Source: an uncultured Eubacteriales bacterium (GTDB lineage: Bacteria; Bacillota; Clostridia; Oscillospirales; CAG-272). Taken from it: a stretch of DNA of 64,000 nucleotides. The notes under the pieces were generated by a model that searched no databases, was not told the origin of the DNA, and saw only the letters and a program-made list of their open reading frames with translations. Below are positions 310-57,153 of the stretch, one piece after another; position 1 is the stretch's first letter; each line of letters starts with the position of its first letter. The stretch covers positions 5,951 to 69,950 of the forward strand of contig CAKSLQ010000003.1 of the NCBI GenBank assembly GCA_934467415.1, given 5' to 3'. Both the position numbers and the translations under genes were made by a program.

Positions 310-454
310 GGATGCATCCCTCCGTTTTCGCGTTTATCCGCACGGCCGCGCGGATAAAATAAGTCTTGAATTTCTCGCGTTTTTCTGCTATTATGTATTT
401 TAGGAAGTTATGCGGTTTGCGCGGATGCGTTTGGCGGGGTGTAACTCTCTCGCA

Positions 455-592
455 GGCTCCCTCTGACGAGGGAGCTGGCGCGTATGCGCCTGAGGGAGAG
501 AGAACGGGCAGCAACACCGGTGCGCGTTCCCTGCACGGCGGTATCTCTCCCTCCGTCGGCTGACGCCGACACCTCCCCCGTCAGGAGGAGGC
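455..592. repeat. mosaic five-hairpin intergenic repeat, copy A1
   Basis: P1 gctccct/agggagc. P2 ggcgc-gtat-gcgcc. P3 gagggagag...ctctccctc. P4 gtcggc-tgac-gccgac. P5 cctcc...ggagg. Same plan as copies at 30406 and 56852. Preceded by the leader atgcggtttgcgcgga (410-425). Confidence 0.8.
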
Positions 593-641
593 ATGGATAG
601 AGCGTTGCAAAACGAAGAATGATGCGGTTTGCGCGGACTTA

Positions 642-821
642 GGCTTCCCTTGGGGGAGAGCTGTACGAGACGCAAAGCGTCTCGCGGAGTTTTCCCCGAG
701 GGGAAAACATCCTGTGACTGATGAGGGATTGATGGGAGCAAAGCGGCGCACAATGCTGTGCCGATTGCCTGCACGCCCTCATCCACCGCTGACGCGGTCC
801 CCCTTCCCCCAAAGGGAAGGC
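642..821. repeat. mosaic five-hairpin intergenic repeat, copy A2 (extended)
   Basis: Hairpins cgagacgc-aaa-gcgtctcg and gttttcccc-ga-ggggaaaac. Long stem gatgaggg...ccctcatc. Then accgc-tgac-gcggt and ccttccc...gggaagg. 775-821 is a near-identical inverted copy of 7581-7627. 663-714 matches 27310-27360. Leader atgcggtttgcgcgga at 622-637. Confidence 0.8.
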
Positions 822-858
822 TCAGAGTCCCGACGCAGAATCGGAAAGGATATACAAC

Positions 859-3606: not shown

Positions 3607-4265
3607 TGGAAAAGACAAAAGCAAAGCTGATTTCGATCGACGGGCTGGACGGCAGCGGCAAGAATACGCAGAGCGAGCTGCTCCGCGACCGTCTGCGCGC
3701 CGAGGGCCATACCGCCGAGGTCGTCAGCTTCCCGATGTACGGCGAGCCCTCCTGCTTTGCCGTGGAGATGTATCTCTCCGGCGCGCTCGGCGGGCATCCC
3801 GACGACACCGGCGCGTACCCGGCGGCCACCTTCTTTGCGGTGGATCGCTACATCAGTATGCGCACGGTCTGGGGCAGACTGCTTGAGACCAACGACTATA
3901 TCATCTTCAACCGCTATACCAGCGCCAACGCCGTGCATCAGCTCTCCAAGCTGCCGCGTGCGGATTGGGACGAATTTCTCGACTGGCTTTACGACTTCGA
4001 GTTTGCAAGGCTCGGCCTGCCGCGCCCGGATCTCACGCTGTATCTGGTCGTCGAGCCGGAGGTGTCCATGTCGCTCGTGGACAAGCGCGGTGAGAAGAAG
4101 GACATTCACGAGACCGACGCCGCCTATATGCGCGCCTGCTACGAGGCGGGGCTGTATGCCGCGGCGAAGCTCGGCTTTGACAAGATCGGCTGCTGCGCGG
4201 ACGGGAAAATCCTATCGCGTGAGGCGATCGCCGATGCAATCTATCATGAGGTGAAGAGACTGTGA
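3606..4265 (+). CDS. dTMP (thymidylate) kinase family protein
   Basis: 219 aa with N-terminal P-loop ISIDGLDGSGKNTQ as in thymidylate kinases. The start ATG shares one base with the ftsK stop (TGATG). Confidence 0.7.
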   Translation: MEKTKAKLISIDGLDGSGKNTQSELLRDRLRAEGHTAEVVSFPMYGEPSCFAVEMYLSGALGGHPDDTGAYPAATFFAVDRYISMRTVWGRLLETNDYIIFNRYTSANAVHQLSKLPRADWDEFLDWLYDFEFARLGLPRPDLTLYLVVEPEVSMSLVDKRGEKKDIHETDAAYMRACYEAGLYAAAKLGFDKIGCCADGKILSREAIADAIYHEVKRL

Positions 4266-4993
4266 AACGGACGGCTCCGGCCGAGAACGTCCGGATTGCG
4301 CGCGTGCGCGATCTGGACGCTGCCACGCTTCGCGCGGCGCGCGCTTTGCAGCACGCAGCGTTCGGCGACGACGCGGCGTTTCTCGACCGTTTGTTTGCCG
4401 CGGCGGCGGATGAACGGTATCTGTACATTCGCGCGGGGAGCGGCATCGCCGCAGGATGCTTCGTGTTCGGCGCGGCGCTGTATACGGGCGGCCGCACGGT
4501 GCAGGGCGGGTATCTGTATGCGCTCTGTACCGCGGCGGCCTATCGCGGCCGCGGCCTTGCGCATACGCTGCTCGGCGCGGCCGTGCGGTGCGCGGGGGAA
4601 TTTCTGCTGACCGTGCCCGCCTCGCGCAGCCTCTGCGATTTTTACCGCCGCGTCGGCTTTACGCACGCGCTGTACGGCTGTGTGACGGTCGGCGGCGACG
4701 GTGACAGCAAAGCGCCGGTCGAAACGCGGCCGGGCGGGTATGCGGACGCGGTACAGGCCGCAAAGCTGCACGGCGGGCTGCTGCTGGCCGAGCCGCTGTT
4801 TGCACTCGCGCTTGCCGAGAGCGGGGCAGTCCCCGCCGTTGTCGGCGACGCGTTCTGTGCGGTGCGGGGCGGACAGCTCGCGGCCGCCATCGGCCTCCGG
4901 CCGAAACATCCGATTGCCGAAAAGGCGCTCCTGCGCAGCGGTTCCCCGCTGCCGACCGACGGCATCTTCGCGGATCTTCTGCTCGAGGTGTAA
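4262..4993 (+). CDS. GNAT family N-acetyltransferase
   Basis: 243 aa. Acetyl-CoA pocket motif YRGRGLAHTLL (R/Q-x-x-G-x-G/A). GTG start overlaps the upstream stop (GTGA). Confidence 0.7.
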   Translation: MKRTAPAENVRIARVRDLDAATLRAARALQHAAFGDDAAFLDRLFAAAADERYLYIRAGSGIAAGCFVFGAALYTGGRTVQGGYLYALCTAAAYRGRGLAHTLLGAAVRCAGEFLLTVPASRSLCDFYRRVGFTHALYGCVTVGGDGDSKAPVETRPGGYADAVQAAKLHGGLLLAEPLFALALAESGAVPAVVGDAFCAVRGGQLAAAIGLRPKHPIAEKALLRSGSPLPTDGIFADLLLEV

Positions 4994-5010
4994 TGATTCT
5001 GCCGGGGGGG

Positions 5011-5182
5011 AACGGGTCGTCGAGGGCGCCGACCCCTACCGGTCAGCGGGAAATCCTCACAAACTTGTAGGGCGGGGGCTTGCTCCCGCCGCAAGAAAAA
5101 ACGGGTCGTCGAGGGCGCCGACCCCTACCGGTTTGCGCGGAATCTCCGCACACCGCACAGGCGGGGGCTCGCTCCCGCCGCA
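5011..5182. repeat. two tandem 83-nt copies of a second hairpin-repeat subfamily (5011-5093, 5100-5182)
   Basis: Both copies start aacgggtcgtcgagggcgccgacccctaccggt and end gcgggggct(t/c)gctcccgccgca. The middles diverge. The end module recurs at 7534-7560. Confidence 0.85.
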
Positions 5183-5222
5183 TCACACAAAAACGACAAC
5201 ATCAACCGAAAGGATGGTTTTC

Positions 5223-5762
5223 ATGGTTTACATTCTGCTTGCAGACGGATTTGAAGAAATCGAGGCGCTCTGCCCGCTTGACCTTCTGCGCCGTGCCGGC
5301 GTGGAGGCAAAGACGGTCAGCGTGACCGAGAAGCGGGTCGTCACCGGCTCGCACGGCATTGCCGTGACGGCGGATCTGACGGCGGAAAATTCGCTGTCCG
5401 ATTTTGACATGCTGGTTCTGCCCGGCGGTATGCCCGGCACGACCCATCTGGATAAGTCGCAGTTCTGCGACGGCCTTCTGCGCGCCGCCGTCAAGAGCGA
5501 CGCCTATATCGCCGCCATCTGCGCCGCGCCGATGGTTCTCGGCCGCCGCGGCCTCCTGAAGGACAAAGAAGCGGTCTGCTTCCCCGGCTTTGAGGGCGAG
5601 CTTGCGGGCGCGCACCTCTCCGACCGCCGCGTCGTCAGGGACGGCAAAATCATCACCGGCGTCGGCATGGGCGCGGCACTCGAATTCGGCCTTGCGCTGG
5701 TCGAGGTCTTCTGCGGCAAAGAGGCCGCGGATAAGCTCGGCGGCTCGGTTCTGGCGAAATGA
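5223..5762 (+). CDS. DJ-1/PfpI/ThiJ family protein
   Basis: ORF 4701..5762 trimmed to ATG 5223 (AAAGGA 9 nt upstream); the upstream part of the ORF is the repeat region. VLPGG motif and nucleophile-elbow AAICAAP. Confidence 0.85.
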   Translation: MVYILLADGFEEIEALCPLDLLRRAGVEAKTVSVTEKRVVTGSHGIAVTADLTAENSLSDFDMLVLPGGMPGTTHLDKSQFCDGLLRAAVKSDAYIAAICAAPMVLGRRGLLKDKEAVCFPGFEGELAGAHLSDRRVVRDGKIITGVGMGAALEFGLALVEVFCGKEAADKLGGSVLAK

Positions 5763-6571
5763 CGGCAGTCTGCGACACGGAAAAACCGTGTGCTGTGCCG
5801 ACGGACGCGCCGAACCCGAAGACCGAACGCCGCCGTGCCGCGCGCGAACTGCGCGACGCCATGCCTGCGGCGCTGCGTGCCGAGGCGAGCGCGGCGATCT
5901 GTCGGCGGATCCTCGCGATGGCGTCCTTCGGGCTTTGCGACACGGTGTTCTGCTACAGCCCGGTGGGCAGCGAGGTCGATATCCGCCCGGTCATCGCCGA
6001 GGCGCTCGCGCGCGGCAAGCGCGTGGCGCTTCCGGCCTGCGACTATGTGGCCGGGGAGATGGAGTTTTACGACATCGGGAGCGGGATGCTCTGCGAAAAC
6101 GGGCCGATGCACATCCCCGAGCCTTTGCCCGACCCGGCCATGCGGCTCACGCCCACGGCCGGGACGCTGATGCTGGTTCCGGGGCTGCTGTTTGACCGTC
6201 GCGGGCGGCGCATCGGCTACGGCAAGGGCATGTATGACCGCTACATACGGCGCTTCCCGGATTTTCTGCGCGGCTCGACCGCCGTCGGCGTGTCCTTTGC
6301 CGCGCTGCTCTCGGATACGCCGATCCCCTATACCGATTTTGACGTCAACCTTGCGCTGGTCGTGACCGAACACGGTCTCGTCTTCACGCGCAGGATCGAA
6401 AAAGCACCGAAGTGGGAGGTGCGGCATCGCCGCCCCGTCCCGCTGGTCGATCGCGACGGCAACCCGGCAAAGCAGCAGAAGCGCGCGTATTACAGCGCCG
6501 ATTTTGTGCCGCCGGACGCCGGGAAGTATGCGCCGCCGCGCGCAAAGGAAACGAAGGAACCCAAGGAATGA
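5759..6571 (+). CDS. 5-formyltetrahydrofolate cyclo-ligase with a basic C-terminal tail
   Basis: 270 aa with motif LVPGLLFDRRGRRIGYGKGMYDRY, typical of MTHFS/YgfA. ATGA overlap with the DJ-1 gene. About 60 extra Lys/Arg/Pro-rich residues at the C terminus. Confidence 0.85.
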   Translation: MTAVCDTEKPCAVPTDAPNPKTERRRAARELRDAMPAALRAEASAAICRRILAMASFGLCDTVFCYSPVGSEVDIRPVIAEALARGKRVALPACDYVAGEMEFYDIGSGMLCENGPMHIPEPLPDPAMRLTPTAGTLMLVPGLLFDRRGRRIGYGKGMYDRYIRRFPDFLRGSTAVGVSFAALLSDTPIPYTDFDVNLALVVTEHGLVFTRRIEKAPKWEVRHRRPVPLVDRDGNPAKQQKRAYYSADFVPPDAGKYAPPRAKETKEPKE

Positions 6572-7464: not shown

Positions 7465-7580
7465 AACGCATGGATGGCGACCTGAAACGAATAGGTAAAC
7501 CCATGCCGATTGGTATGAGATTTTATGCATTCCGTAGGGCGGGGGCTTGCTCCCGCCGCATCCGTTCGCATTCTGTTCAA

Positions 7581-7723
7581 GCCTTCCCCTTTGGGGAAGG
7601 GGGACCGCGTCAGCGGTGGATGAGGGCTTGCAGACTGCCTCCACAGCATTGTGTGAAGTTCAGCCTCCCGCAATCCCTCATCCGTCACGGCAATGCCGTG
7701 CCACCTTCCCCAAAGGGGAAGGC
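7581..7723. repeat. mosaic five-hairpin intergenic repeat, copy C
   Basis: ccttcccc-tttg-ggggaagg. accgc-gtca-gcggt. 9-bp stem ggatgaggg...ccctcatcc. cacggca-a-tgccgtg. ccttcccc-aaa-ggggaagg. Preceded at 7534-7560 by the subfamily-2 module gtagggcgggggcttgctcccgccgca. Confidence 0.8.
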
Positions 7724-7768
7724 TTAGATACACCCTCGCTTTATCCCGATTCAGAAAAGGAAAATTCT

Positions 7769-9373
7769 ATGGAAAACGATGCAAACAAGCGGCCGCGTCC
7801 GCGCCGCACGCCCGAGACGTTCGGGCAGGCCGATACCGCGCGCTCCGCACCGGCCAAGCAGCCGACTCCGGCACAGCAGCCGACTCCGGCGAAGCAGCCG
7901 ACTCCGGCACAGCGTCCGACCCCGGCCAAACAGCCGACCCCGGCACAGCAGCCGACTCCGGTACAGCAGCCGACTCAGGCACAGCAGCCGACTCCGGCAC
8001 AGCAGCCGACCCCGGCCAAGCAGCCGACCCCGGCGAAGCGCCCGACCCCGGCCAAGCAGCCGACTCCGGCACAGCGCCCGGCCGCGCCGAAACCGCCTGC
8101 GCCCGCCAAAGCACCGACCTCCGCAAAGCCGACCGCGCCCGTGCAGGACGAAGACAACGAAAAGACCCGCCTGACCAACGCCATGCCGAAGGCCGGGCTG
8201 AAAACGCCCGTGCGCGGCGCACCCGTCAAAAAGGAGGAGGCCTCCTCGACGGCAAGCGGCCTTTTCAAGGCGATCATTTACATGACCGCCGTGCTGCTTG
8301 TGTCGATCCTGCTGTCCTACGCGGTGATCGTCGTGGCCAACGATGTGTTCGCCTTTGTCAAGCCGGACACCGAGGTCGAGGTGGTCATCCCCGAGAACGC
8401 GACCGTGGACGACGTTTCGAATATTCTCGGCGATGCGGGCGTGATCAAATACCCCGCGCTGTTCCGCCTCTATGCCGAGCTGAAAAAGGAGACCGGTATC
8501 GACAAGGACGGCAAGAGCGTCTTTATCCCCGGCACGTATACGGTCAGCCCGATGGAAAACTACATGCAGCTCCTCGACGCATTCAAGGAGCAGTATGTGC
8601 GCGGCACGGTCTGGGTCACCTTCCCCGAGGGCTCGACCGTGGAGGACATCATCGACGTGCTGCTGGAGAACGGCATTTCCGACCGTGCGTCGCTCATCAG
8701 CGCAATCAACGACTATGATTACGGCCTCGATTTTGTCGATGCCATCGACATGTCGAACGGCCGCTATTACCGCCTCGAGGGCTATCTTTTCCCGGATACC
8801 TACCAGTTCTACACCGATTCGAGCGCCGAGACCGTCATCTACAAGATGCTCGTCAACTTCAAGAAAAAGCTGGCGTACATCGGTGACGACATGTGCGCCG
8901 AGCGGCTTGAGGAGCTGGGCATGACGCTGGACGAGGTCGTCACGCTGGCCTCCATGGTCGAAAAAGAGGTCAAGTACGCGGTGGACTACGAGACCGTCGC
9001 CTCGGTCTTCTACAATCGCCTGGCCGACCCCGCCAACTTCCCGCGCCTCGACAGCGACGCGACCACGGTCTATGCCATCCGCATGGCGACCGGCACGCGC
9101 CCCGAGACGCTGAGCGCCGAGGACATTGATTTCGACAACCCGTACAACACGCGCGTCAGCCGCGGCCTGCCGCCCGGGGCCATCGCCAACCCCGGCTATG
9201 AGGCGCTCTACTGCGCGTTCTATCCCGCAAAGACGAAGTATTACTACTTTGTCGCCGATACCACCGGCTACAATCTCTACGCCCGCACCAACGCCGGGCA
9301 CGAACAAAACAAGGCAGAAGTCAAAAAGCATGCCGCCTCCGCGGTCATTGCCGGAAGTGAGGAAGAAACGTGA
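7769..9373 (+). CDS. mltG: endolytic murein transglycosylase MltG (YceG-like) with a Pro/Thr/Gln-rich repeat tail
   Basis: ORF 7547..9373 trimmed to ATG 7769. Single TM followed by a YceG domain with LASMVEKE and YNTRVSRGLPPGAIANPG motifs. Confidence 0.9.
   Translation: MENDANKRPRPRRTPETFGQADTARSAPAKQPTPAQQPTPAKQPTPAQRPTPAKQPTPAQQPTPVQQPTQAQQPTPAQQPTPAKQPTPAKRPTPAKQPTPAQRPAAPKPPAPAKAPTSAKPTAPVQDEDNEKTRLTNAMPKAGLKTPVRGAPVKKEEASSTASGLFKAIIYMTAVLLVSILLSYAVIVVANDVFAFVKPDTEVEVVIPENATVDDVSNILGDAGVIKYPALFRLYAELKKETGIDKDGKSVFIPGTYTVSPMENYMQLLDAFKEQYVRGTVWVTFPEGSTVEDIIDVLLENGISDRASLISAINDYDYGLDFVDAIDMSNGRYYRLEGYLFPDTYQFYTDSSAETVIYKMLVNFKKKLAYIGDDMCAERLEELGMTLDEVVTLASMVEKEVKYAVDYETVASVFYNRLADPANFPRLDSDATTVYAIRMATGTRPETLSAEDIDFDNPYNTRVSRGLPPGAIANPGYEALYCAFYPAKTKYYYFVADTTGYNLYARTNAGHEQNKAEVKKHAASAVIAGSEEET
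7850..8083 (+). repeat. 13 tandem 18-nt units inside mltG encoding hexapeptide PTPA(K/Q)Q repeats
   Basis: Units ccggc(a/c)(c/a)agcagccgac(t/c) counted by hand at 7850, 7868, ... 8066. The protein reads AKQPTPAQQPTPAKQPTPAQRPTPAKQ... Confidence 0.9.
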
Positions 9374-11418: not shown

Positions 11419-12203
11419 TGCGGCTCTGCGCATGGGAGGCGCTGCCCGCCGAGATGCGGACAGACGCGGTGCGGCATTACTACGACATCCTGCAAAAAAA
11501 GCGCGCCGGGCTGTTTTGGAAGCGCGCGTTTGACATTTTCGCGTCTGCGGTCATGCTCCTTCTGCTTTCGCCGCTCTTTCTGCTTTTGGCAATTGCCATC
11601 AAGCTGGACAGTCCCGGCCCGGTTTTTTACCGGCAGGCGCGCGTGACGCAGTACAACCGGCATTTCCGCATTTTCAAGTTCCGCTCCATGGTGCAGAACG
11701 CCGACCGCGGCTCGCTGGTCACGGTGAGCGGCGACAGCCGCGTGACGCGCGTGGGGCGCATGATCCGCCGCTTTCGCCTGGACGAGGTCAGTCAGCTCGT
11801 CAATGTGCTTGTCGGCGACATGACCTTTGTGGGCACGCGCCCCGAGGTGCCGAAATACACGGCGGCATATACCGACGAAATGATGGCGACGCTGCTGCTC
11901 CCCGCGGGCGTGACCAGCCTTGCCAGCATCTATTATAAGGATGAGGCGGAGCTGCTCGGTGCAGCGGCGGACACCGACAAGACCTACATCGAGCGGATTC
12001 TGCCCGCGAAGATGTATTACAATCTGAAAGCGATTGAACAGTTCGGATTCTTTCGGGACATCGGCATCATGTTTATGACCTTCTTTGCCGTCTGCGGCAA
12101 GGAGTACAAGGGCGACTATGTGGAGCCTGTCGCAGAGCCTGCCGCCGGGGAGGCGCAGGCGGCGGCAGAGACCGACGAGACGAGAGCGGAGAGTAAAGTA
12201 TGA
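11418..12203 (+). CDS. undecaprenyl-phosphate sugar phosphotransferase (small bacterial sugar transferase family, PglC/EpsL-like)
   Basis: 261 aa. KRAFDIFAS...LDSPGPVFYRQ.RV....FRIFKFRSM...VGDMTFVGTRPE motifs. TGATG overlap with the upstream gene. Confidence 0.9.
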   Translation: MRLCAWEALPAEMRTDAVRHYYDILQKKRAGLFWKRAFDIFASAVMLLLLSPLFLLLAIAIKLDSPGPVFYRQARVTQYNRHFRIFKFRSMVQNADRGSLVTVSGDSRVTRVGRMIRRFRLDEVSQLVNVLVGDMTFVGTRPEVPKYTAAYTDEMMATLLLPAGVTSLASIYYKDEAELLGAAADTDKTYIERILPAKMYYNLKAIEQFGFFRDIGIMFMTFFAVCGKEYKGDYVEPVAEPAAGEAQAAAETDETRAESKV

Positions 12204-20797: not shown

Positions 20798-21964
20798 ATG
20801 GAAAACAAAGAACAAAGGGGCATCGGGCTATGCCTTGCCTTCAAGGGCGCCAATTACGGCGCGCTGCTGCAATCCTTTGCCACGCAGTATCAACTGGACA
20901 AGCGCGGCATCTATTCCGAGGTGCTGGATTACACGCGCGGCAAGACCAACAAGTATATTTTCTCGCCCGAGGCGTTTCTTTTCCTGTCCGTCAAAAAACT
21001 GTGGATGTTTTTTGACGCGAAGTTTGCAAAGCAGCCGGTGCTTGACGAGCTGCACCGCCGCAACAAGGCGGAGCGCGCCGAGATCGCAAAGGATTTCTGC
21101 CGCCGCAGACTGCACAACATCGTCAAGTTAAACGGCTATGACGAGTTGACGGCGCACGCCGCAACCTACAAAGCGGTCATGGTCGGCAGCGACCAGCTCT
21201 GGCCGCCGGATGTGTCCTTCTCCAACTATCTTTCGCTGATGTTTGCGCCCGCGGGCGTGCGGCGCATTTCCTATGCGACCAGCACCGGCGTTGCAAAATA
21301 CCCGTGGTTTGTCTATCGGCAGGCGCGCGTCTTCTTAAACAAGATCGACTTTCTGAGCGTGCGCGAGCAGGCGGGCTATGAGATTATCAAGAAGATCACC
21401 GGCAGGGATGCCAAAGTCGTGTGCGACCCAACCTATCTCATTCCGAAGGCGGAGTGGGAGGAACTGATCGAGAAAAAGGAAGTCGTCGAGAGCGGCTATG
21501 TCTTCAGTTTCTTCCTCGGCTGCAACGAGAAGATGAAGCGGCTGGTGCGGCAGTATGCCGACGCGCACGGACTGCGCGTTGTGTGCATCCTGAGCAACGA
21601 GGTCGTCGAGGACGACAGTTTCTATGCCGACGAGATCCTCACCGGCAAGACACCGGAGGAGTTCATCAACCTCATTCGCCATGCCGAATGCGTTTTTACG
21701 GATTCGTTCCATGCGTTCACCTTCTCGGTCATCAACGAGAAGGAAGTCTATGTTTCCTACCGCGTCAAAAAGGGCGTGCGCCCGCGCAACCAGCGCATTG
21801 ACAACATCGTGCGGAAGTTCGGGGTGGAAAACCGCCTCGTGAAGGACCCCGAGCACTATGTGTTTGACGACAAGCCGATCGACTACGCGCGGGTCACCGC
21901 CGCGGTCGATGCTTTCCGCGCAGAGTCGGCGGCATTCCTCGACAGCGCGGTTGTGGGGTGCTGA
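20798..21964 (+). CDS. polysaccharide pyruvyl transferase family protein
   Basis: Trimmed to ATG 20798. Motifs KGANYGALLQSFA, MVGSDQLWPP, VCDPTYL and FTDSFHAFTFSV, as in CsaB/WcaK-type pyruvyl transferases. Confidence 0.8.
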   Translation: MENKEQRGIGLCLAFKGANYGALLQSFATQYQLDKRGIYSEVLDYTRGKTNKYIFSPEAFLFLSVKKLWMFFDAKFAKQPVLDELHRRNKAERAEIAKDFCRRRLHNIVKLNGYDELTAHAATYKAVMVGSDQLWPPDVSFSNYLSLMFAPAGVRRISYATSTGVAKYPWFVYRQARVFLNKIDFLSVREQAGYEIIKKITGRDAKVVCDPTYLIPKAEWEELIEKKEVVESGYVFSFFLGCNEKMKRLVRQYADAHGLRVVCILSNEVVEDDSFYADEILTGKTPEEFINLIRHAECVFTDSFHAFTFSVINEKEVYVSYRVKKGVRPRNQRIDNIVRKFGVENRLVKDPEHYVFDDKPIDYARVTAAVDAFRAESAAFLDSAVVGC

Positions 21965-26759: not shown

Positions 26760-27122
26760 TTATTTCGCTTCCGGTTCTTCCTTGCGCTTTTTCTGGAGCT
26801 TTGTGAAGACGCGGAGCACCGTGAAGATGGTGAGTGCGACGATCAGAAAGTCGATGACGCTCTGGATGAAGTTGCCGTAGCAGAGCGCGGTCTCCGCCGT
26901 GGCGACGCTGCCGTCCGCCGCGTAGACCGCCTCGCGGATGACCCACTTCCAGTCGGTCACGTTGAGGCCGCCGACAAGCAGACTGACGAGCGGCATGATG
27001 ACGTCGTTGACCAGCGAGGACACGATCTTGTTGAACGCGCCGCCGATGACGACACCGACGGCCATATCGACAACGTTGCCTTTTGCAATGAATTCCTTGA
27101 AATCAGCAGAAAACTTACCCAT
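26760..27122 (-). CDS. mscL: large-conductance mechanosensitive channel
   Basis: ORF trimmed to the ATG giving MGKFSADFKEFIAKGNVVDMAVGVVIGGAFNKIV (GGAGGA 6 nt upstream). Canonical MscL N terminus. Confidence 0.95.
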   Translation of the reverse strand: MGKFSADFKEFIAKGNVVDMAVGVVIGGAFNKIVSSLVNDVIMPLVSLLVGGLNVTDWKWVIREAVYAADGSVATAETALCYGNFIQSVIDFLIVALTIFTVLRVFTKLQKKRKEEPEAK

Positions 27123-27288
27123 ATGTTCCTCCATGCGCGGCAGAGCCGCTTTTTTCTTCCCCTATTATAGTCGAACCCTGTCGGTTTGTCAAGGCAGATG
27201 AGAAAAAGACGCGTTCGCGGTTTGTATCTATTTTCACTTGCCGACTCTTGTGTGCGGATCCGATAGTACGGAGTGAATGATATCTTCA

Positions 27289-27445
27289 GCCCCCTCGGTG
27301 AGGGACGGCGTACGAGACGCGATGCGTCTCGCGGAGTTTTCCAGATGGAAAAACATCCTGAGGCGTGAGCCGACTGGGGGAGTTTTGCACGCTGCGGGAC
27401 TCCTTCCGTCACGCTTCGCGTGCCACCTCCCTCAACGAGGGAGGT
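27289..27445. repeat. mosaic five-hairpin intergenic repeat, copy D
   Basis: ccctc-ggt-gaggg. cgagacgc-gat-gcgtctcg. gttttcc-agat-ggaaaaac. cacgc-ttc-gcgtg. cctccctc-aac-gagggagg. 27310-27360 matches 663-714 except in the loops. Confidence 0.8.
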
Positions 27446-27488
27446 AAAACGCAGACGCGCGGGTTCCCGGTTCCCGACCGATATATTG

Positions 27489-27706: not shown

Positions 27707-28453
27707 TCATCGGAAGAATTCGACAAACGCGCGGAAATTCGGCCGTTGGCGTGCATCGGCTGTCGCCTTGAAGCCGAGCAGCGACACGTCGAGCGGGCAG
27801 AGCGAGAGCGCCATGCCGTGCGGCGTTTCCTCGACGGCAAAACCGGCGGCCGCGCTGACTTCGGCAAGCAGGACGCGGAGCAGCGCGGCTTCCCCGGCCG
27901 GGCAGGGCGAACCGCCGACCGCGTCGGCAAAGACCTGCACATTGCCGCAGGACGGGATGAAGCTGACGGCCACCTCGCGTCCCTCTGCGGCGCTGAGGCG
28001 AATCAGCAGCGCGAGGCAGAGCGCATAAGCGTTCGGCGGCACGCAGACCGTCACGTCACGTGGCAGCAATTCCACGCGGAAGTGCGCGCCCGCGTCGCCG
28101 AGCACCTCGGCAAAGCAGCTTTCAAACAGCAGCGTCAGCGCGCAGAGCGAACGCGGGACGGCGTTCGCCTTGGAAAAGCTCGTCACATCGAACAGCCCCT
28201 CCGCCGCGCGGGGCGCGGCGTCCACGCCGTAGCAGGCGCAGAGCCGGTCGAAATCCATGAAGAAATAATAGACCCTGCCGCCGAGCGTCACCGGCTTGAC
28301 ATAGACGTTTGCATCGTCGATGCGCAGAATGCCGCGCGGATGCGCCGCACAGGCGGTGCGGATCGCGGCAAAGCGGGCGTCGCGCCGTCGCACGCCGCTG
28401 CAAAAGAGAACATCGCCGCTCTCGGCGGCGATGAGAAGCGGAGGCAGATTCAT
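27707..28453 (-). CDS. hypothetical protein
   Basis: 248 aa with strong GC3 codon bias on this strand. ATGA overlap with the upstream gene. The C-terminal half is vaguely HATPase-like but has no motif I can name. The opposite-strand ORF 27365..28531 is Arg-rich and crosses a terminator. Confidence 0.6.
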   Translation of the reverse strand: MNLPPLLIAAESGDVLFCSGVRRRDARFAAIRTACAAHPRGILRIDDANVYVKPVTLGGRVYYFFMDFDRLCACYGVDAAPRAAEGLFDVTSFSKANAVPRSLCALTLLFESCFAEVLGDAGAHFRVELLPRDVTVCVPPNAYALCLALLIRLSAAEGREVAVSFIPSCGNVQVFADAVGGSPCPAGEAALLRVLLAEVSAAAGFAVEETPHGMALSLCPLDVSLLGFKATADARQRPNFRAFVEFFR

Positions 28454-29352: not shown

Positions 29353-30375
29353 TTAATAAATCTCCTTTGCATCGAGCGCACGGACATAGTCCGCCTCGGT
29401 CACATGCAGGCGCGCGGCGCGCTCGTCGATCATCGCATAGAACCGCGCGTTCTGGTACTGGGACTTCAGCTCGTCGAAGTGCGCGGTGATGTAGCTCTCG
29501 TCCTTCGGCAGGCGGAGCAGGATGTGAAAGCCGTCGCTGCTCTCCACGATGCCGCTGATTTCGCCGTCGGCGAGCGCGAACGCGGCCGCCTCAAAATCAT
29601 CGGTCATTTCGCCGCGTGTGAAGTAGTAGCCGTCCGCCGGCATGGAAACGTCCTCGGAATAGCGGCCGATCAGCGTGGCAAAATCCACGCCGCCGCGGTA
29701 GGCGTCCAGCACCTCCTCGGCGATTTTGCGGTTGGCTTCGGCGTCCTCGCCGGGATCATTTTCGATGAAAATCTGCTTGACACGGACAAAATCATCGCCT
29801 TGCAGGATGGCGAGGATCGCGGCGTCGTCGCTCTCGATCGCGCCGTCCGCCGCCGTCATCGCGGCAAACAGCTTGTCCTCCGTGCCGTCCGCGCGCACGA
29901 GAAAGTCGAAGACCTGCTCGGTCATATAGTTGTTCTCCAGCTCCGCCGCGTAAGCGGATGCGCCGTAGTAGCCGCGCACGGCGTCGATGTATTCGATGGC
30001 GGATGCTCTGATGTCGCCGTCCGTGGGCGTGATGCCGTAGTCGGCGGCCAGCGAGATCATGCCGTAGAGGCCGCAGACCGCCTCGGCAACACGCGCGCGC
30101 ACCGCGCGGTCGAGCGCGTCGGTCTCCGTTTCACCCGCGTCGTTTTTGTAGACGCCCTTCAGCTCGGCCTTGTAGTTCAGGTAGAAATAGCGGTAGAGGT
30201 CGTAGGTCACGGTGTAGCTCCCGGCGTAGAGCGCGGTTTGCCCGTAGCTTTCGCGGTAGGCGGCGTCGCGCTTTGCGCGGACGGCGCGCACGGCGGCGAA
30301 AACGCCGAGGGCGATCAGCACGAGTACGAGCGCCGCGGCAATGAGCCGGTATTTATTTTTATGAAAATCAATCAT
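29353..30375 (-). CDS. membrane-anchored parvulin-type peptidyl-prolyl isomerase (PrsA/SurA-like)
   Basis: ORF trimmed to MIDFHKNKYRLIAAALVLVLIAL (the longer ORF would run into repeat copy E). C-terminal parvulin domain FATLIGRYSEDVSMPADGYYFTRGEMTDDFEAAAFAL..GEISGIVESSDGFHILLRL. Confidence 0.8.
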   Translation of the reverse strand: MIDFHKNKYRLIAAALVLVLIALGVFAAVRAVRAKRDAAYRESYGQTALYAGSYTVTYDLYRYFYLNYKAELKGVYKNDAGETETDALDRAVRARVAEAVCGLYGMISLAADYGITPTDGDIRASAIEYIDAVRGYYGASAYAAELENNYMTEQVFDFLVRADGTEDKLFAAMTAADGAIESDDAAILAILQGDDFVRVKQIFIENDPGEDAEANRKIAEEVLDAYRGGVDFATLIGRYSEDVSMPADGYYFTRGEMTDDFEAAAFALADGEISGIVESSDGFHILLRLPKDESYITAHFDELKSQYQNARFYAMIDERAARLHVTEADYVRALDAKEIY

Positions 30376-30405
30376 AACGGTCTCCGTGAGGTGATTTTGA
30401 GAGAA

Positions 30406-30517
30406 GCCTCCCTTGTGCAAAGGGAGGTGTCACGGCTTGCCGTGACGGAGGGATTGTTTTGTACGGAACAACCCCTCAGCCGCCATGCGGCGGCAGCTCC
30501 CCTTGCACAGGGGAGCC
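30406..30517. repeat. mosaic five-hairpin intergenic repeat, copy E (112 nt, inverted relative to copy J)
   Basis: Its reverse complement aligns to 56852-56963 with identical 23-, 14-, 11- and 23-nt blocks and different hairpin inserts (see findings). Confidence 0.9.
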
Positions 30518-30585
30518 TTGTGTGCCTTCTTCCTTATTATCATACAATACTTCACCGCGGATAGCAAGAATTTGCGGAAAAAATC

Positions 30586-30665: not shown

Positions 30666-31082
30666 ATGGGATACAATACAAAGCAGAAGAGCGCCGTGCT
30701 CGACTGTCTGGCGCGGCACAGAAACGAGAGCCTGACGGTGGACGGTGTGGTCGCCGCGCTCGGCGCGGAGGGCGTGAAGGCCGGGCGCAGCACGGTCTAT
30801 CGCCACCTGGAGGAGCTTTGCCGCGAGGGGGCGATCAGCCGCTTTGCCGCCGAGAGCGGCAAGAGTGCGACCTACCGCGTGATCGGCAGCGAATGCGGCG
30901 ACGACTGCCATTTTCATCTGATCTGCACCGCGTGCGGCGAGGTCTGCCACACGCACTGTCACGAGCTGGAGGCGCTGTTTGCCCACATGGCGGCGGCGCA
31001 CGGCTTCTCGGTGGACGAAAAGAAGACCATGCTGTACGGCGTCTGCGAGAAGTGCCGGAAAAAAGGGGAGAGGGAAGTATGA
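30666..31082 (+). CDS. zur: Fur family transcriptional regulator, probably zinc-responsive (Zur)
   Basis: Trimmed to ATG 30666 (GAGGAA upstream), 138 aa. Winged-helix N terminus, HFHLICTACG...C.H.C and CEKC Cys pairs. First gene of a Zn ABC transporter operon. Confidence 0.8.
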   Translation: MGYNTKQKSAVLDCLARHRNESLTVDGVVAALGAEGVKAGRSTVYRHLEELCREGAISRFAAESGKSATYRVIGSECGDDCHFHLICTACGEVCHTHCHELEALFAHMAAAHGFSVDEKKTMLYGVCEKCRKKGEREV

Positions 31083-41602: not shown

Positions 41603-41680
41603 GCGCCCTTAGCTCAGCCCGGATAGAGTACCGGATTCCGATTCCGTTGGTCGTGGGTTCAAATCCCTCAGGGCGCGCCA
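41603..41680 (+). tRNA. tRNA-Arg (anticodon CCG)
   Basis: Hand-folded cloverleaf. Acceptor gcgccct/agggcgc, anticodon loop ttCCGat, T-loop ttcaaat, encoded CCA. One non-Watson-Crick pair in the anticodon stem (27:43) and one in the T stem (50:64). Confidence 0.7.
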
Positions 41681-41706
41681 GATCCGCTTTTCCCAAGCGG
41701 ACATAT

Positions 41707-41782
41707 GGGGCATTAGCGCAGTTGGGAGCGCACAACACTGGCAGTGTTGGGGTCAGGGGTTCGAATCCCCTATGCTCCACCA
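41707..41782 (+). tRNA. tRNA-Ala (anticodon GGC)
   Basis: Acceptor ggggcat/atgctcc with the G3:U70 Ala identity pair. Anticodon loop ctGGCag, T arm agggg-ttcgaat-cccct, encoded CCA. Confidence 0.9.
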
Positions 41783-41820
41783 ACAACAAAAGACCGCCGC
41801 ACGGCGGTCTTTTGTTGTTG
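41783..41820 (+). terminator. rho-independent terminator after the tRNA pair
   Basis: caacaacaaaagaccgcc-gcac-ggcggtcttttgttgttg. Confidence 0.85.
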
Positions 41821-48312: not shown

Positions 48313-48397
48313 GCGAGAGTGGCGGAACTGGCAGACGCGCACGTTTGAGGGGCGTGTGGATTTCTCCGTACGGGTTCAAGTCCCGTTTCTCGCACCA
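48313..48397 (+). tRNA. tRNA-Leu (anticodon GAG)
   Basis: Class II tRNA with a long variable arm. Acceptor gcgagag/ttctcgc, anticodon stem-loop cacgt-ttGAGgg-gcgtg, encoded CCA. Confidence 0.85.
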
Positions 48398-48740: not shown

Positions 48741-48827
48741 GCGGGTGTGGCGGAATTGGCAGACGCGTAAGATTCAGGTTCTTATGGGGGCAACTTCGTG
48801 AAGGTTCAAGTCCTTTCACCCGCACCA
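48741..48827 (+). tRNA. tRNA-Leu (anticodon CAG)
   Basis: Acceptor gcgggtg/cacccgc, anticodon stem-loop taaga-ttCAGgt-tctta, long variable arm, encoded CCA. Confidence 0.9.
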
Positions 48828-49000: not shown

Positions 49001-49040
49001 AAACAAAAGAAGACCGCCATCCGGCGGTCTTCTTTTGTTT
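49001..49040. terminator. bidirectional rho-independent terminator
   Basis: aaaa-gaagaccgcc-atcc-ggcggtcttc-tttt. Abuts the 3' end of the minus-strand tRNA. Confidence 0.85.
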
Positions 49041-49117
49041 TGGTGGACCATCAAGGGCTCGAACCTTGGACCGGCCGGTTATGAGCCGGCTGCTCTGACC
49101 AACTGAGCTAATGGTCC
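49041..49117 (-). tRNA. tRNA with anticodon CAT (elongator Met or lysidine-modified Ile2)
   Basis: Reverse complement is ggaccat ta gctc agttggtca gagc a gccgg ctCATaa ccggc cggtc caagg ttcgagc ccttg atggtcc a cca. The 1:72 pair is Watson-Crick, so it is not an initiator. The anticodon arm resembles tRNA-Ile2 as I remember it. Confidence 0.85.
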
Positions 49118-54448: not shown

Positions 54449-54464
54449 TCGGGCGTGAAAGGTC

Positions 54465-54636
54465 CCGAGCCGCAGGGCGCGGCTTGCGAAGCAAAACGGC
54501 GGCTTCCCCCTTGGGGGAAGCTGTCGCCGGAGGCGACTGATGAGGGGTAGGGCGCAGCCCGTCTGCAAAGACGGAACGACGCACCCCGGTCGCCCGCCCG
54601 GAATCTGCAAGCGCGGTTTTGCGGCTCGGATTTTTC
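54465..54636. repeat. structured insert between dnaK and dnaJ containing a partial mosaic repeat
   Basis: ccgagccgca (54465-54474) pairs with tgcggctcgg (54620-54629) and is followed by attttt. Inside: gcttccccc-tt-gggggaagc, gtcgcc-gga-ggcgac, then ctgatgagggg and ccgtctgc-aaa-gacgg. Confidence 0.7.
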
Positions 54637-54676
54637 GCGTATTTCGGACAAATTCATTTGAAATAAGAGAAGCACG

Positions 54677-55853: not shown

Positions 55854-56774
55854 ATGGATATGCAATGGACACAGCTCCGCGTCACGGGCGCGGTGAAGGA
55901 CCTCGAGACCGTCAGCGCCGTCATGAGTATGGTGAACAACTCGCTGATGATTGAGGACTACAGCGACGTGACGACCGACGGCATGTACGGCGCGCTGCTC
56001 GACGAGAGTCTCTTAAACGCCGACAAGACGCGCGCGGCGGTCTCGGTCTTCATCCCCGAGACGCAGAGCGTTGCCGAGGGCAGGGCGTTCATCGAGACGC
56101 ACCTTGCGGCGGCGGGCATCCCCTATGAGATGGAGGTCGTCGGCTGCCGGGAGGAGGACTGGGCCGAGGCGTGGAAGAAGTATTACCACCCGATCAAGGT
56201 CGGCAGGATTGTGATTGTCCCCGCGTGGGAGGATTACACGCCCGCGCCGGGCGAGGTCACGGTCACGATGGACCCCGGCATGGCGTTCGGCACGGGGACG
56301 CATGAGACCACGCGCCTCGTCATTTCGATGCTGGAAAAGTATCTGAAGCCGGGCGACCGGATGCTCGACGTCGGCACGGGCAGCGGCATTCTGTCCATCT
56401 GCGGCTCCAAGCTCGGCGCGTCGCAGTGCGCCGCCTATGACCTCGACCCCACCGCGGTGCGCGTTGCCCGCGAGAACATCGAGGCGAGCGGAGCGAAGAA
56501 CATCACCTGTGATGTGTCCGACCTGCTCGCGGACGTCGATCTTTCGGGCGGCAAATATGACATCATCGCGGCGAACATCGTCGCCGACATCATCCTGCGC
56601 ATGACGCCGGACGTGGACAAATACCTCGCGGACGGCGGCATCCTGATTGCGTCGGGCATCATCTGCCCGCGCCGCGCAGAGGTGGAAGCCTGCTTTGCCG
56701 CGCATGGACTTGAGGTGTTCGACAGCCTGGTCGAAAACGATTGGTGCGCCCTCGCGGTGCGGAAAAAAGCATAA
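55854..56774 (+). CDS. prmA: ribosomal protein L11 methyltransferase
   Basis: 306 aa. SAM motif DVGTGSGILSI. Canonical position after dnaJ in Firmicutes. Confidence 0.9.
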   Translation: MDMQWTQLRVTGAVKDLETVSAVMSMVNNSLMIEDYSDVTTDGMYGALLDESLLNADKTRAAVSVFIPETQSVAEGRAFIETHLAAAGIPYEMEVVGCREEDWAEAWKKYYHPIKVGRIVIVPAWEDYTPAPGEVTVTMDPGMAFGTGTHETTRLVISMLEKYLKPGDRMLDVGTGSGILSICGSKLGASQCAAYDLDPTAVRVARENIEASGAKNITCDVSDLLADVDLSGGKYDIIAANIVADIILRMTPDVDKYLADGGILIASGIICPRRAEVEACFAAHGLEVFDSLVENDWCALAVRKKA

Positions 56775-56812: not shown

Positions 56813-56851
56813 TGGGGTTGAAAGGAGAGGCAGGGGTCGGCGCGCTTTTTC

Positions 56852-56963
56852 GGCTCCCCTGTGCAAGGGGAGCTGGCGCGTGAGCGCCTGAGGGGTTGTT
56901 CCTTGGCTCTGTAACAATCCCTCCGCCGCCGTTCGGCGGCACCTCCCTTTGCACAAGGGAGGC
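56852..56963. repeat. mosaic five-hairpin intergenic repeat, copy J (112 nt)
   Basis: gctcccct-gtgca-aggggagc. ggcgc-gtga-gcgcc. gaggggttgtt...aacaatccctc. gccgcc-gttc-ggcggc. cctccctt-tgcaca-agggagg. Followed at 56984-57060 by subfamily-2-like modules (gggcgattc-gtg-aatcgccc ctacggggg). Confidence 0.9.
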
Positions 56964-57153
56964 TTGGATGGAACGGCAAGGATGCGGGCGATTCGTGAAT
57001 CGCCCCTACGGGGGTGTGCTTCGTCCCCGTCCTCGCCGCGCTCCCCCTCCGTGAACGGGGTGTGACAACTGCCTGAAACTTTCTGTGTTTCCCTTGATAA
57101 TTGTGCTGCAATCGTGTAAAATAGAGGAAGACATTTCGGAGAGGGGGAAGACG

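Follow-up and report, generated by a model that had tools for sequence, protein, structure and literature searches.

Inverted pairs of hairpin and mirror-repeat half-units in a gut Oscillospirales genome, putative dependants of a miniature DUF559 element

Two copies of a short element at unrelated loci

The stretch analyzed here, referred to as the window, comprises 64,000 nucleotides (nt) from an uncultured Eubacteriales bacterium of the order Oscillospirales (contig CAKSLQ010000003.1, positions 5,951 to 69,950). Its subject is a 112-nt sequence (30406-30517) situated between a prsA-like rotamase gene (29353-30375, minus strand) on one side and fur (30666-31082, plus strand) on the other, within an element that we call E5. 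A sister copy, E7, lies between prmA (55854-56774) and a DUF5685 gene. Both are inverted pairs of ~45-nt half-units that have no open reading frame (ORF), and both align to the ends of longer elements that carry a gene of the DUF559 family. The two copies and the half-units of E5 are as follows.

30404..30519: E5, a complete ORF-less element with two inverted half-units and a short P3 remnant
30404..30452, plus strand: R-type half-unit of E5, covariance model score 21.4 bits, E 1.7e-5
30473..30519, minus strand: L-type half-unit of E5, covariance model score 34.8 bits, E 4.3e-10
56850..56965, opposite orientation to E5: E7, the sister copy, with halves at 56850-56894 and 56919-56965

Read from 5' to 3' toward the center of the element, a half-unit consists of a first hairpin (P1), a single T, a second hairpin (P2) and a G-rich anchor. 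P1 is formed by a C-rich arm, a loop of 2-5 nt and a G-rich arm; P2 is closed by G...C and is otherwise free in sequence; and the anchor occurs as GGAGGGAT, GAGGGGT or GGATGAGGG. Two types of half-unit are distinguished, L (GGCTTCC...GGAAGC-T-(P2)-T-GATGAGGG) and R (GCCTTCC...GGAAGG-T-(P2)-G-GATGAGGG). In the R-type half of E5, P1 is CCTCCCTT/AAGGGAGG, followed by T, P2 (GTCACGGC-TT-GCCGTGAC) and the anchor GGAGGGAT, which mirrors the purine arm of P1 and is called the third strand in what follows. The L-type half has P1 GCTCCCCT/AGGGGAGC, T, P2 GCCGCC-GCAT-GGCGGC and third strand GAGGGGT. Half-units were located using a covariance model (CM) of 47 positions and 13 base pairs, built from 18 sequences of other genomes only, the seed of which was given a fixed P1 length (MAFFT alone misaligned the P1 loops).

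A sequence-only reading of the window had aligned the reverse complement of 30406-30517 with 56852-56963, at 112 nt each, into four identical blocks separated by three unrelated inserts with swapped hairpins, and realignment of both copies gave the same result. At two of the three inserts the copies have perfect hairpins that differ from each other, so that, numbering the hairpins of the whole element P1 to P5, E5 and E7 have an identical scaffold and differ in P2, P4 and the P3 loop. Together they form a short subfamily in which the halves lie only ~20 nt apart, represented by near-identical copies at unrelated loci. Folding of both strands of E5 and E7 with RNA parameters gave free energies of -69 to -74 kcal/mol (z -6.9 to -8.1 against shuffles) and a minimum free energy structure in the form of a four-way junction, with the outer hairpins paired to each other. 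With DNA parameters the minimum free energy structure has exactly five hairpins (z -7.8 and -6.5) and is identical to the drawing of the sequence-only reading.

Covariation and a mirror repeat define the half-unit

Conservation of the half-unit was assessed in 150 aligned half-units (142 distinct sequences). Across the 142, 98.1% of the stem cells are paired (99.4% for P1, a hairpin present in every half-unit of the window), compared to 44-67% in slid controls, and double-change cells number 206 against 72 +/- 5 in shuffles. P2 is represented by 104 distinct hairpins among the 150 half-units, and the earlier observation that stems differ between copies yet remain complementary is therefore both correct and general. 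Certain P2 types (CACGGC-n-GCCGTG, GCGCG-n-CGCGC, GTCACC-GAA-GGTGAC and GCAAAAATC-TTT-GATTTTTGA) recur across scaffolds and species. Since a limited P2 repertoire is thus found on different scaffolds and in different species, the hairpin mosaicism is real, and the likeness to mosaics of the repetitive extragenic palindrome (REP) and bacterial interspersed mosaic element (BIME) type that had been pointed out is borne out.

The anchor is a mirror image of the P1 purine arm (AAGGGAGG/GGAGGGAT, AGGGGAG/GAGGGGT and GGGAGAAGG/GGATGAGGG), the first two of these pairs being the subfamilies found in the window. When the third strand was placed against P1 in the antiparallel mirror register, the fraction of allowed triads (G.G:C, A.A:T, T.A:T) was 0.82, compared to 0.63 after shuffling of the third strand and 0.59 when the direct register was used. 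A three-way covariation was also observed, in which the bases of the 5' and 3' arms and the first base of the third strand occur as C-G+G in 100 half-units and as G-C+T in 31, with 11 others (n=142), and it is in this covariation that L and R halves differ. The third member of the covariation is beyond what Watson-Crick pairing explains. By analogy with characterized triplexes, the G-rich block could occupy the P1 major groove and so form a purine-motif DNA triplex.

Paired elements from other genomes (n=105) include 61 of L/R, 35 of R/R and 3 of L/L composition, the distance between their halves being mostly 40-59 nt, and ORF-less copies range from 112 to 185 nt in length. Other structured sequences were considered and rejected. 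A hammerhead ribozyme was suggested by CUGAUGAG, but GAUGAGGG is taken up in pairing with CCCUCAUC and the GAAA core is absent after it. Conserved boxes matching integron attC, Xer/dif or Tn3-type inverted repeats were not seen on reading the sequence.

Structure at the level of DNA

Loops of P2 are strongly biased. Triloops are GAA, GCA, GTA or GGA in 33/36 cases, the loop starts with G in 78/104, and this bias is present on the inward strand of each half, making it mirror-symmetric. Because such an asymmetry is mirrored between the halves, a single transcript cannot satisfy it; the transcript would have GNA in one half and UNC in the other. C-GNA-G triloops form exceptionally stable DNA mini-hairpins. 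Overall, these features point to a structure at the DNA level over one at the RNA level.

Rfam 15 was searched with the window at gathering scores and at E <= 5, and no element was matched at the gathering score; the family is absent from this database. The sole sub-threshold match touching an element, sot0042 at 458-501 (19.6 bits against an 88-bit cut-off), was regarded as noise. When 12 loci of other phyla were scanned at gathering scores, only tRNAs were returned. E5 is probably transcribed, as a predicted sigma-70 promoter (30567-30539, minus strand) is placed on one side of it and the prsA-like start codon on the other, and side effects of the elements at the RNA level are possible.

Elements with a nested DUF559 gene

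Two elements in the genome sample (L117 and L016; loci outside the window are given by L and P numbers) have ~365 nt between their halves, each with an ORF. The nested ORFs match PF04480 (DUF559) with E-values of 2.6e-26 and 2.5e-36. They also gave weak sub-cutoff matches to REase_MTES_1575 (PF18741), only the second of which is notable (E 7.6e-6), and to the NCBIfam model of Escherichia coli YcjD. A tblastn search for DUF559 in the window and ~120 loci returned two ORF-bearing elements only, none of them in the window. A protein search scored at least 8000 DUF559 relatives, and in many homologues the C-terminal tail is a translated half-unit (...TSSTASGPPSPQGEG, ...RPSSVAAAPRHLPPRGRL, ...PHQSA..., ...KQSLRHG).

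The relatives P0027 and P0075 are located inside elements of the E5/E7 subfamily, with a left end of the form AAGCCTCCCTTGTGCAAAGGGAGGTG(P2)CGGAGGGATTGCCAAATG... and a right end ...GTAAAACAATCCCTCCGTCACGGCTAACGCCGTGCCACCTCCCTTTACACAAGGGAGGC. The ORF-bearing elements of this subfamily are L133 and L137, and the alignment of E5 and E7 to them extends over both ends and is interrupted by a single ~350-nt gap, which is the ORF; E5 keeps AAAACAATCCCTCCGTCACGGC, corresponding to the last ORF codons (KQSLRHG). In L133 and L137 the anchor GGAGG is the Shine-Dalgarno sequence of the ORF and its complement at the far end encodes the C-terminus; P3 therefore encloses the gene. Going by these alignments, the ORF-less, strain-variable copies are internal-deletion derivatives of an ORF-bearing element. 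The sequence-only reading had set the family apart from transposable elements of the miniature inverted-repeat type (MITEs), a contrast that does not hold, since the copies are MITE-like derivatives of this kind. Comparison of the L133 and L137 ORFs gave a ratio of non-synonymous to synonymous divergence (pN/pS) of 0.10 at a pS of 0.68, a pattern by which the DUF559 protein is judged to be under purifying selection. Over the 59 nt of the left end, which include P2, the two elements differ at a single position, and these ends are either under stronger constraint than the protein or homogenized.

The best 80 DUF559 loci of a metagenome scan (98.8 kb) were searched with the half-unit CM, which gave 172 matches at E <= 0.01. 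Among these best 80 loci, an inward-facing half-unit was found no more than 130 nt upstream of the DUF559 gene in 41/73 and at its 3' end in 36/78; where both flanks were present, at least one adjacent inward half-unit was found in 46/71 loci and one on both sides in 25/71. For comparison, the density in the window, itself element-rich, is one half-unit per 5 kb. In locus L208 (410-892) a DUF559 gene has the right end of one element on one side and the left end of a second element on the other, with the halves facing outward, and L191, L201, L163, L172, L177 and L194 look similar; this arrangement could represent tandem elements, a permuted form or a junction intermediate. Most DUF559 contigs (P0001-P0120; L131, L132, L135, L136) are shorter than 2 kb or end at an element, and contigs with the rotamase gene next to E5 mainly break at the element.

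When compared to the PDB, the DUF559 family profile matched 3HRL (an endonuclease-like protein) at E 3e-31 and 3R3P ("mobile intron protein", which we take to be I-Bth0305I) at E 0.0014. The invariant residues of the family are D, E-x-D-G-x-Q-H and D, and in earlier profile work YcjD detected Vsr, of the PD-(D/E)xK superfamily (PMC1189080). The sequence-only reading had suggested a RAYT or IS200-like HUH transposase as the associated gene. No Y1/RAYT transposase gene turned up in or beside elements in the DNA examined, the 80 DUF559 loci included, though no dedicated search was made, and the nested gene is instead that of a DUF559 Vsr-like endonuclease.

Further copies in the window

The window was scanned by the half-unit CM with filters off, which identified 12 half-units at E <= 0.0011. 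These constitute six complete elements (for E4, only the right half was recognized) and one solo half (E6). Apart from E5 and E7, they are as follows.

453..594: E1, complete; halves 453-496 (plus strand, E 5.4e-7) and 549-594 (minus strand, E 4.6e-7); upstream of an ftsK-like ORF (859-3606)
640..823: E2, complete, GATGAGGG-type; halves 640-727 (E 1.8e-5) and 776-823 (E 1.4e-7)
7579..7725: E3, complete, GATGAGGG-type; halves 7579-7626 (E 3.1e-9) and 7675-7725 (E 3.5e-13)
27289..27447: E4, diverged; right half 27401-27447 (CM 16.1 bits, E 0.0011)
54478..54616, plus strand: E6, a 139-nt insert with a solo L-type half at 54499-54546 (CM 51.2 bits, E 1e-15)

The sequence-only reading had counted at least seven copies, all intergenic, and the CM scan recovers exactly those seven loci; of these, the copy given as 27289-27445 is recognized by its right half only and that given as 54501-54598 is a solo half. 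All window copies are indeed intergenic, and the spurious ORF extensions that had been attributed to them are real. No additional copy was found in the window, the remaining sub-threshold matches falling within the seven loci, and a match at 21669-21746 (E 0.015) inside coding DNA was judged to be due to chance.

The left half of E2 (640-727) contains two additional hairpins, which by reading it has in common with the left part of E4, and 714-822 in E2 is 82% complementary to 7580-7688 in E3. E3 lies upstream of an mltG-like gene (7769-9373), the 5' part of which contains at least 14 tandem 18-nt units (7816-8152) that encode a proline-rich repeat of PAKQPT type. E4 is placed between two minus-strand genes, 27707-28453 and mscL (26760-27134), and E6 occupies the loop of the dnaK terminator hairpin (CCGAGCCGCA...TGCGGCTCGG+ATTTTT).

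A second, unrelated repeat family is present at 5011-5093, 5100-5182, 7536-7562 and 56985-57040, as well as in L230 and L233 beside prsA/fur elements. Its sequence is ...GTAGGGCGGGGGCTTGCTCCCGCCGCA... (CGGCGGGAGCAAGCCCCCGCCCTACAGG on the other strand), a hairpin GCGATTCGTGAATCGCCCCTACGGGGG is possibly related, and it tends to directly adjoin the triplex-type elements. The G+C content of the window is 58-66%. Five tRNA genes were found (41603-41779, 48313-48394, 48741-48824 and 49044-49117, with that at 48313-48394 from a permissive scan only), and near-identical terminator-like hairpins (AACAAAAGACCGCC...GGCGGTCTTTTGTT) follow two tRNA clusters at 41782-41819 and 49002-49039.

Variation between strains

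Contigs encoding exactly the DnaK and Fur proteins of the window come from human-gut metagenomes, and they revealed insertion polymorphism at three spacers. Among strains that all encode the same DnaK, four have a dnaK-dnaJ spacer of 94 nt, and its length is 228 nt in six others and in the window. Comparison of window positions 54460-54640 with L001, L003, L005 and L006 (~11849-11942) showed that the dnaK terminator stem has been kept as a closing stem around the 139-nt E6 insert, so the terminator or attenuator may survive with a large structured loop. The prmA-DUF5685 spacer holds 0, 1 or 2 different elements; the three forms described have E7 alone, another element in opposite orientation and no E7, or E7 and a second element. 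E7 is absent in strains L001 and L005, and the second element is found beside it in L004 and L010, where it sits in a hairpin loop of the unrelated second repeat family described above. Strains with identical Fur differ in the family member that fills the prsA/fur spacer (E5, one of GATGAGGG type or one like E1), and its nucleotide boundaries are the same in all three cases. Because these three spacers differ among strains with identical proteins, copies are gained, lost and replaced within the species. Ectopic gene conversion between copies would produce just such replacement, in which the boundaries stay fixed.

Other differences between these strains were also seen. One identical-DnaK strain, L003, differs from L001 and L002 at 3847-6315, where the region that separates asparagine synthase from peptidase M23 contains an extra APH-like (aminoglycoside phosphotransferase) gene and a gene of AAA_14/DUF4143 type, and L006 and L007 have TnpV fragments downstream of prmA.

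Distribution and relation to BoxC, PIT and TMECO repeats

Species-representative genomes were scanned with the pattern GATGAGGG N40-60 CCCTCATC N12-26 CTTCCCC, which matched at least 119 stretches, and the half-unit CM identified 315 half-units in 696 kb from 100 loci of many taxa. Among the matches listed, genuine elements occur in Oscillospiraceae (Gemmiger formicilis ATCC 27749, Faecalibacterium, Faecousia, Pseudoflavonifractor phocaeensis, Intestinimonas) and metagenome-assembled genomes of other Clostridia, in Alphaproteobacteria (Mesorhizobium, Rhizobium lusitanum, Bosea, Roseiarcus, Aestuariivirga), in Gammaproteobacteria (Dokdonella, Rudaea) and in Planctomycetota (Paludisphaera soli). 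A few matches in cyanobacteria and Acidobacteriota were simple GGGATGA repeats and attributed to chance. A collection of 2.9 million viral contigs yielded no more than 20 matching stretches, and a strong link to phages is therefore not apparent.

The half-unit resembles a repeat of proteobacteria that has been known successively as BoxC, PIT and TMECO, with the design 5'-CCCTCNCCC N3-6 GGGNGAGGG N3 GGGNGAGGG (Holder et al. 2015, NAR 43:10126, PMC4666352, where the earlier BoxC and PIT work of Maher et al. and Hoyne et al. is cited). Holder et al. counted 3610 TMECO copies in 262 proteobacterial genomes and linked them to strain-level rearrangement and instability, mobility functions never being found nearby; for the E. 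coli TMECO their report describes circular dichroism, nuclear magnetic resonance and in vivo footprinting, with stable DNA triplexes formed in vitro. In both repeats a short loop joins a C-rich arm to a G-rich one, and a further G-rich block follows as the mirror image of the latter (G.G:C, A.A:T, T.A:T); both are intergenic, multi-copy, without fixed orientation and located at strain-variable loci. In contrast, the arms in the window (CCTCCCTT/AAGGGAGG, and GCTCCCCT or CCTTCCCC/GGGGAAGG) differ from those of TMECO (CCCTCNCCC/GGGNGAGGG), and loop 2, which is 3 nt in TMECO, here consists of a T and a hairpin of 8-30 nt (14-18 nt in the window, 8-29 nt elsewhere). The units also occur here in inverted pairs ~20-60 nt apart and in Firmicutes, and an association with an endonuclease gene or with mobility is absent from the account of Holder et al. 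Their loop search was limited to 1-6 nt and a loop 2 hairpin therefore fell outside it. As both the stem sequence and loop 2 differ, the window half-unit is a variant and not TMECO proper. The sequence-only reading had not recognized the family as described; this stands insofar as Rfam 15 has no match and our literature search found no description of this element family, whereas the half-unit itself proves to be a variant of BoxC/PIT/TMECO.

The two forms also meet at DUF559 genes. Window half-units do not fit the TMECO consensus, but the flanks of DUF559 genes in E. coli and Sinorhizobium meliloti do. The S. meliloti pSymB gene has CCCTCTCCCC-n-GGGGAGAGGG-CTA-GGGTGAGGGG on both sides, a Sinorhizobium DUF559 gene shows the same half-unit association, and a Shinella gene has a 53.9-bit half-unit directly upstream. 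In E. coli, the last codons of ycjD (...LSPSPQPSP*) are the complement of a perfect TMECO, which makes a TMECO the 3' end of ycjD, in parallel with the R half at the 3' end of the DUF559 ORFs described above. E. coli ycjD is located at the sapF-fabI site where the eefRABCD operon is missing, for which at least two independent operon losses have been inferred (PMC12817139). In the same E. coli locus (L142), a perfect 18-bp palindrome (CACCTCATTCTGACAAGA...TCTTGTCAGAATGAGGTG, 340-397) ends at the ycjD start codon and a second TMECO (938-985) lies ~180 nt downstream of ycjD. No paper tying DUF559 or ycjD to BoxC/TMECO repeats was found in the literature searched.

Discussion

We propose, with a probability of about 0.6, that the 112-nt sequence is a non-autonomous, MITE-like, ORF-less copy of a miniature DUF559 mobile element and owes its mobilization to the nuclease. 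The full-length element measures ~460 nt and consists of an R-type half-unit, a gene for a DUF559 protein of ~120 amino acids (Vsr/EDxHD-like, PD-(D/E)xK) and an inverted second half-unit. Acting in trans on folded DNA ends or on element-free sites, the nuclease may produce nicks or breaks, the repair of which from other copies would both spread the element and convert one copy into another. Such conversion could in turn give rise to mosaics with swapped cassettes and to the instability that has been reported for genomes at BoxC sites. For the cassette mosaicism, gene conversion between copies is the best explanation, and we propose that an identical scaffold with swapped cassettes arises because the same process acts on parts of the element. 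A broader proposal, held more tentatively and at somewhat less than even odds, is that BoxC/PIT/TMECO repeats and their hairpin-loop variants are the cis ends of unrecognized, cross-phylum selfish elements driven by DUF559, with ORF-less copies as dependants and break repair as the source of mosaicism and instability. What is apparently new is the DUF559 connection and the cross-phylum organization in inverted pairs.

Several points weigh against this proposal. The link between DUF559 and the elements is positional, and cutting or moving of elements by the protein is deduced from that position. Classical homing accounts for spread at one locus and not for dispersal to many loci. Neither target-site duplications nor clean insertion junctions were found: the flanks of 35 elements have no duplication, the palindrome continuing outward instead (AAAG...CTTT in Oscillospiraceae), and at the dnaK site, examined along with that at prmA, the 139-nt insert replaces 5 nt and brings extra flanking sequence. 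ORF-bearing elements are only 2 of ~150 in the genome sample, about one third of the sampled DUF559 genes lack an inward half-unit next to them (E <= 0.01), and around some the orientations are mixed, with the gene placed between two elements that face outward. Sampling also introduced biases, as the genome-scan pattern pre-selects GATGAGGG and CTTCCCC, the DUF559 loci are biased toward Firmicute-like proteins, and the covariation alignment (A6) was fitted to the CM, although raw sequences give the same picture. Finally, triplex formation has been demonstrated only in the E. coli motif, where loop 2 is 3 nt, and would extend to the hairpin-loop variant by likeness.

The main rival explanation, which we consider unlikely, follows the view of Holder et al. 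and holds that the repeat is a non-mobile triplex or H-DNA-like motif that provokes rearrangement, DUF559 being a bystander or using the motif as a terminator or regulator. It would account for instability at TMECO loci that have no mobility genes (PMC4666352), for the majority of elements that lack an ORF, for the third of DUF559 genes with no adjacent inward half-unit, and for the presence of ycjD at a rearrangement site in E. coli from which eefRABCD is missing (PMC12817139). Counter to this view, the ORF sits exactly between two halves, its Shine-Dalgarno sequence and last codons being built of the motif in Firmicutes, Alphaproteobacteria and E. coli. ORF-less copies are deletion derivatives with near-identical ends, conservation of the ends far exceeds that of synonymous sites, and near-identical copies are present at unrelated loci.

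Movement as REPIN-like elements, by an HUH tyrosine transposase (RAYT or IS200/IS605 TnpA) acting on single-stranded hairpins, is improbable. The organization in inverted doublets of hairpin units and the absence of a visible target-site duplication agree with such a mechanism, as do strand-specific GNA triloops, which are typical of stable DNA hairpins, and the fact that both documented insertions are in loops of pre-existing hairpins. On the other hand, no Y1 transposase turned up in or beside the elements in the DNA examined (no dedicated search having been made), the nested gene is DUF559, and mirror-repeat covariation is foreign to REPs.

Slightly less probable still is a structured RNA, whether a 5'-untranslated or intergenic regulator, an mRNA stabilizer, a terminator or a small RNA. 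The very strong z-scores of RNA folding and the probable transcription of E5 would fit, and P3 would sequester the Shine-Dalgarno sequence in ORF-bearing elements, which makes RNA-level control of the nuclease plausible. Against this, both strands fold equally well, Rfam matches are absent from the window and from the 12 loci of other phyla, and the asymmetries of loops and junctions are mirrored between the halves. The elements are also found in mixed orientation with respect to neighboring genes, E4 being opposite to both of its neighbors, and the covariation follows purine-motif triads, which according to Holder et al. are not formed in RNA (PMC4666352). An ordinary MITE with terminal inverted repeats, moved by the DDE transposase of some insertion sequence, is the least probable of all: although the elements are small, intergenic, insertion-polymorphic and bounded by terminal inverted repeats, no target-site duplication is seen, their ends are hairpins with free-sequence stems that a transposase binding double-stranded DNA would not need, and the related long element codes for DUF559 and not for a DDE transposase.

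The proposed DUF559 element combines features of several known systems. REPIN/RAYT systems (Bertels and Rainey 2011, PMC3116915) likewise consist of inverted hairpin doublets in many non-autonomous copies of ~100-150 nt, with a small nuclease-type gene that is itself flanked by the units, and persist intergenically as within-family sequence populations. The unit here, by contrast, comprises two hairpins and a mirror repeat, one family extends across several phyla, and the protein is a DUF559 Vsr/EDxHD-like PD-(D/E)xK endonuclease and not an HUH Y1 transposase. Since a Vsr-like nuclease takes the place of the transposase that defines REPIN/RAYT systems, the elements appear to work like them yet are not members. 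As in MITEs, copies are short, non-coding and insertion-polymorphic, with terminal inverted repeats and ends in common with a longer coding element, but the parent has no recognized transposase, target-site duplications are not seen, and the stems are conserved as structure and not as sequence. EDxHD/Vsr-like homing endonucleases resemble DUF559 in the 3R3P profile match (E 0.0014), the E-x-D...H...D motif and the small, selfish-looking ORF, and the replacement of one element by another at a single site is what break-induced gene conversion predicts; DUF559 differs in being located outside an intron or intein, with structured inverted ends and abundant, dispersed ORF-less copies. E. coli BIMEs, pneumococcal BOX elements and Rhizobium RIMEs are also modular or mosaic, built from a small repertoire of hairpin modules, although no sequence relationship to BIME or BOX was seen. 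RIME1 (Osteras 1995) is reportedly a 108-bp element with two large palindromes from rhizobia, a host group in which the present family is also abundant.

For practical purposes, the elements systematically break short-read metagenome assemblies and create spurious ORF extensions, and they are strain-level markers in gut Oscillospiraceae. If the proposal is true, DUF559, a very large orphan family that includes E. coli YcjD, would gain a testable role, and BoxC/PIT repeats, known since the 1990s and demonstrated to be instability hot spots without a mobility gene, would gain an origin and a mechanism. The two orphans, BoxC repeats and DUF559/YcjD, thereby become jointly testable. The elements would then represent a second system of a domesticated nuclease and its dependent repeats, with a different chemistry and a DNA triplex as the possible recognition structure, that spans Firmicutes, Proteobacteria and Planctomycetota.

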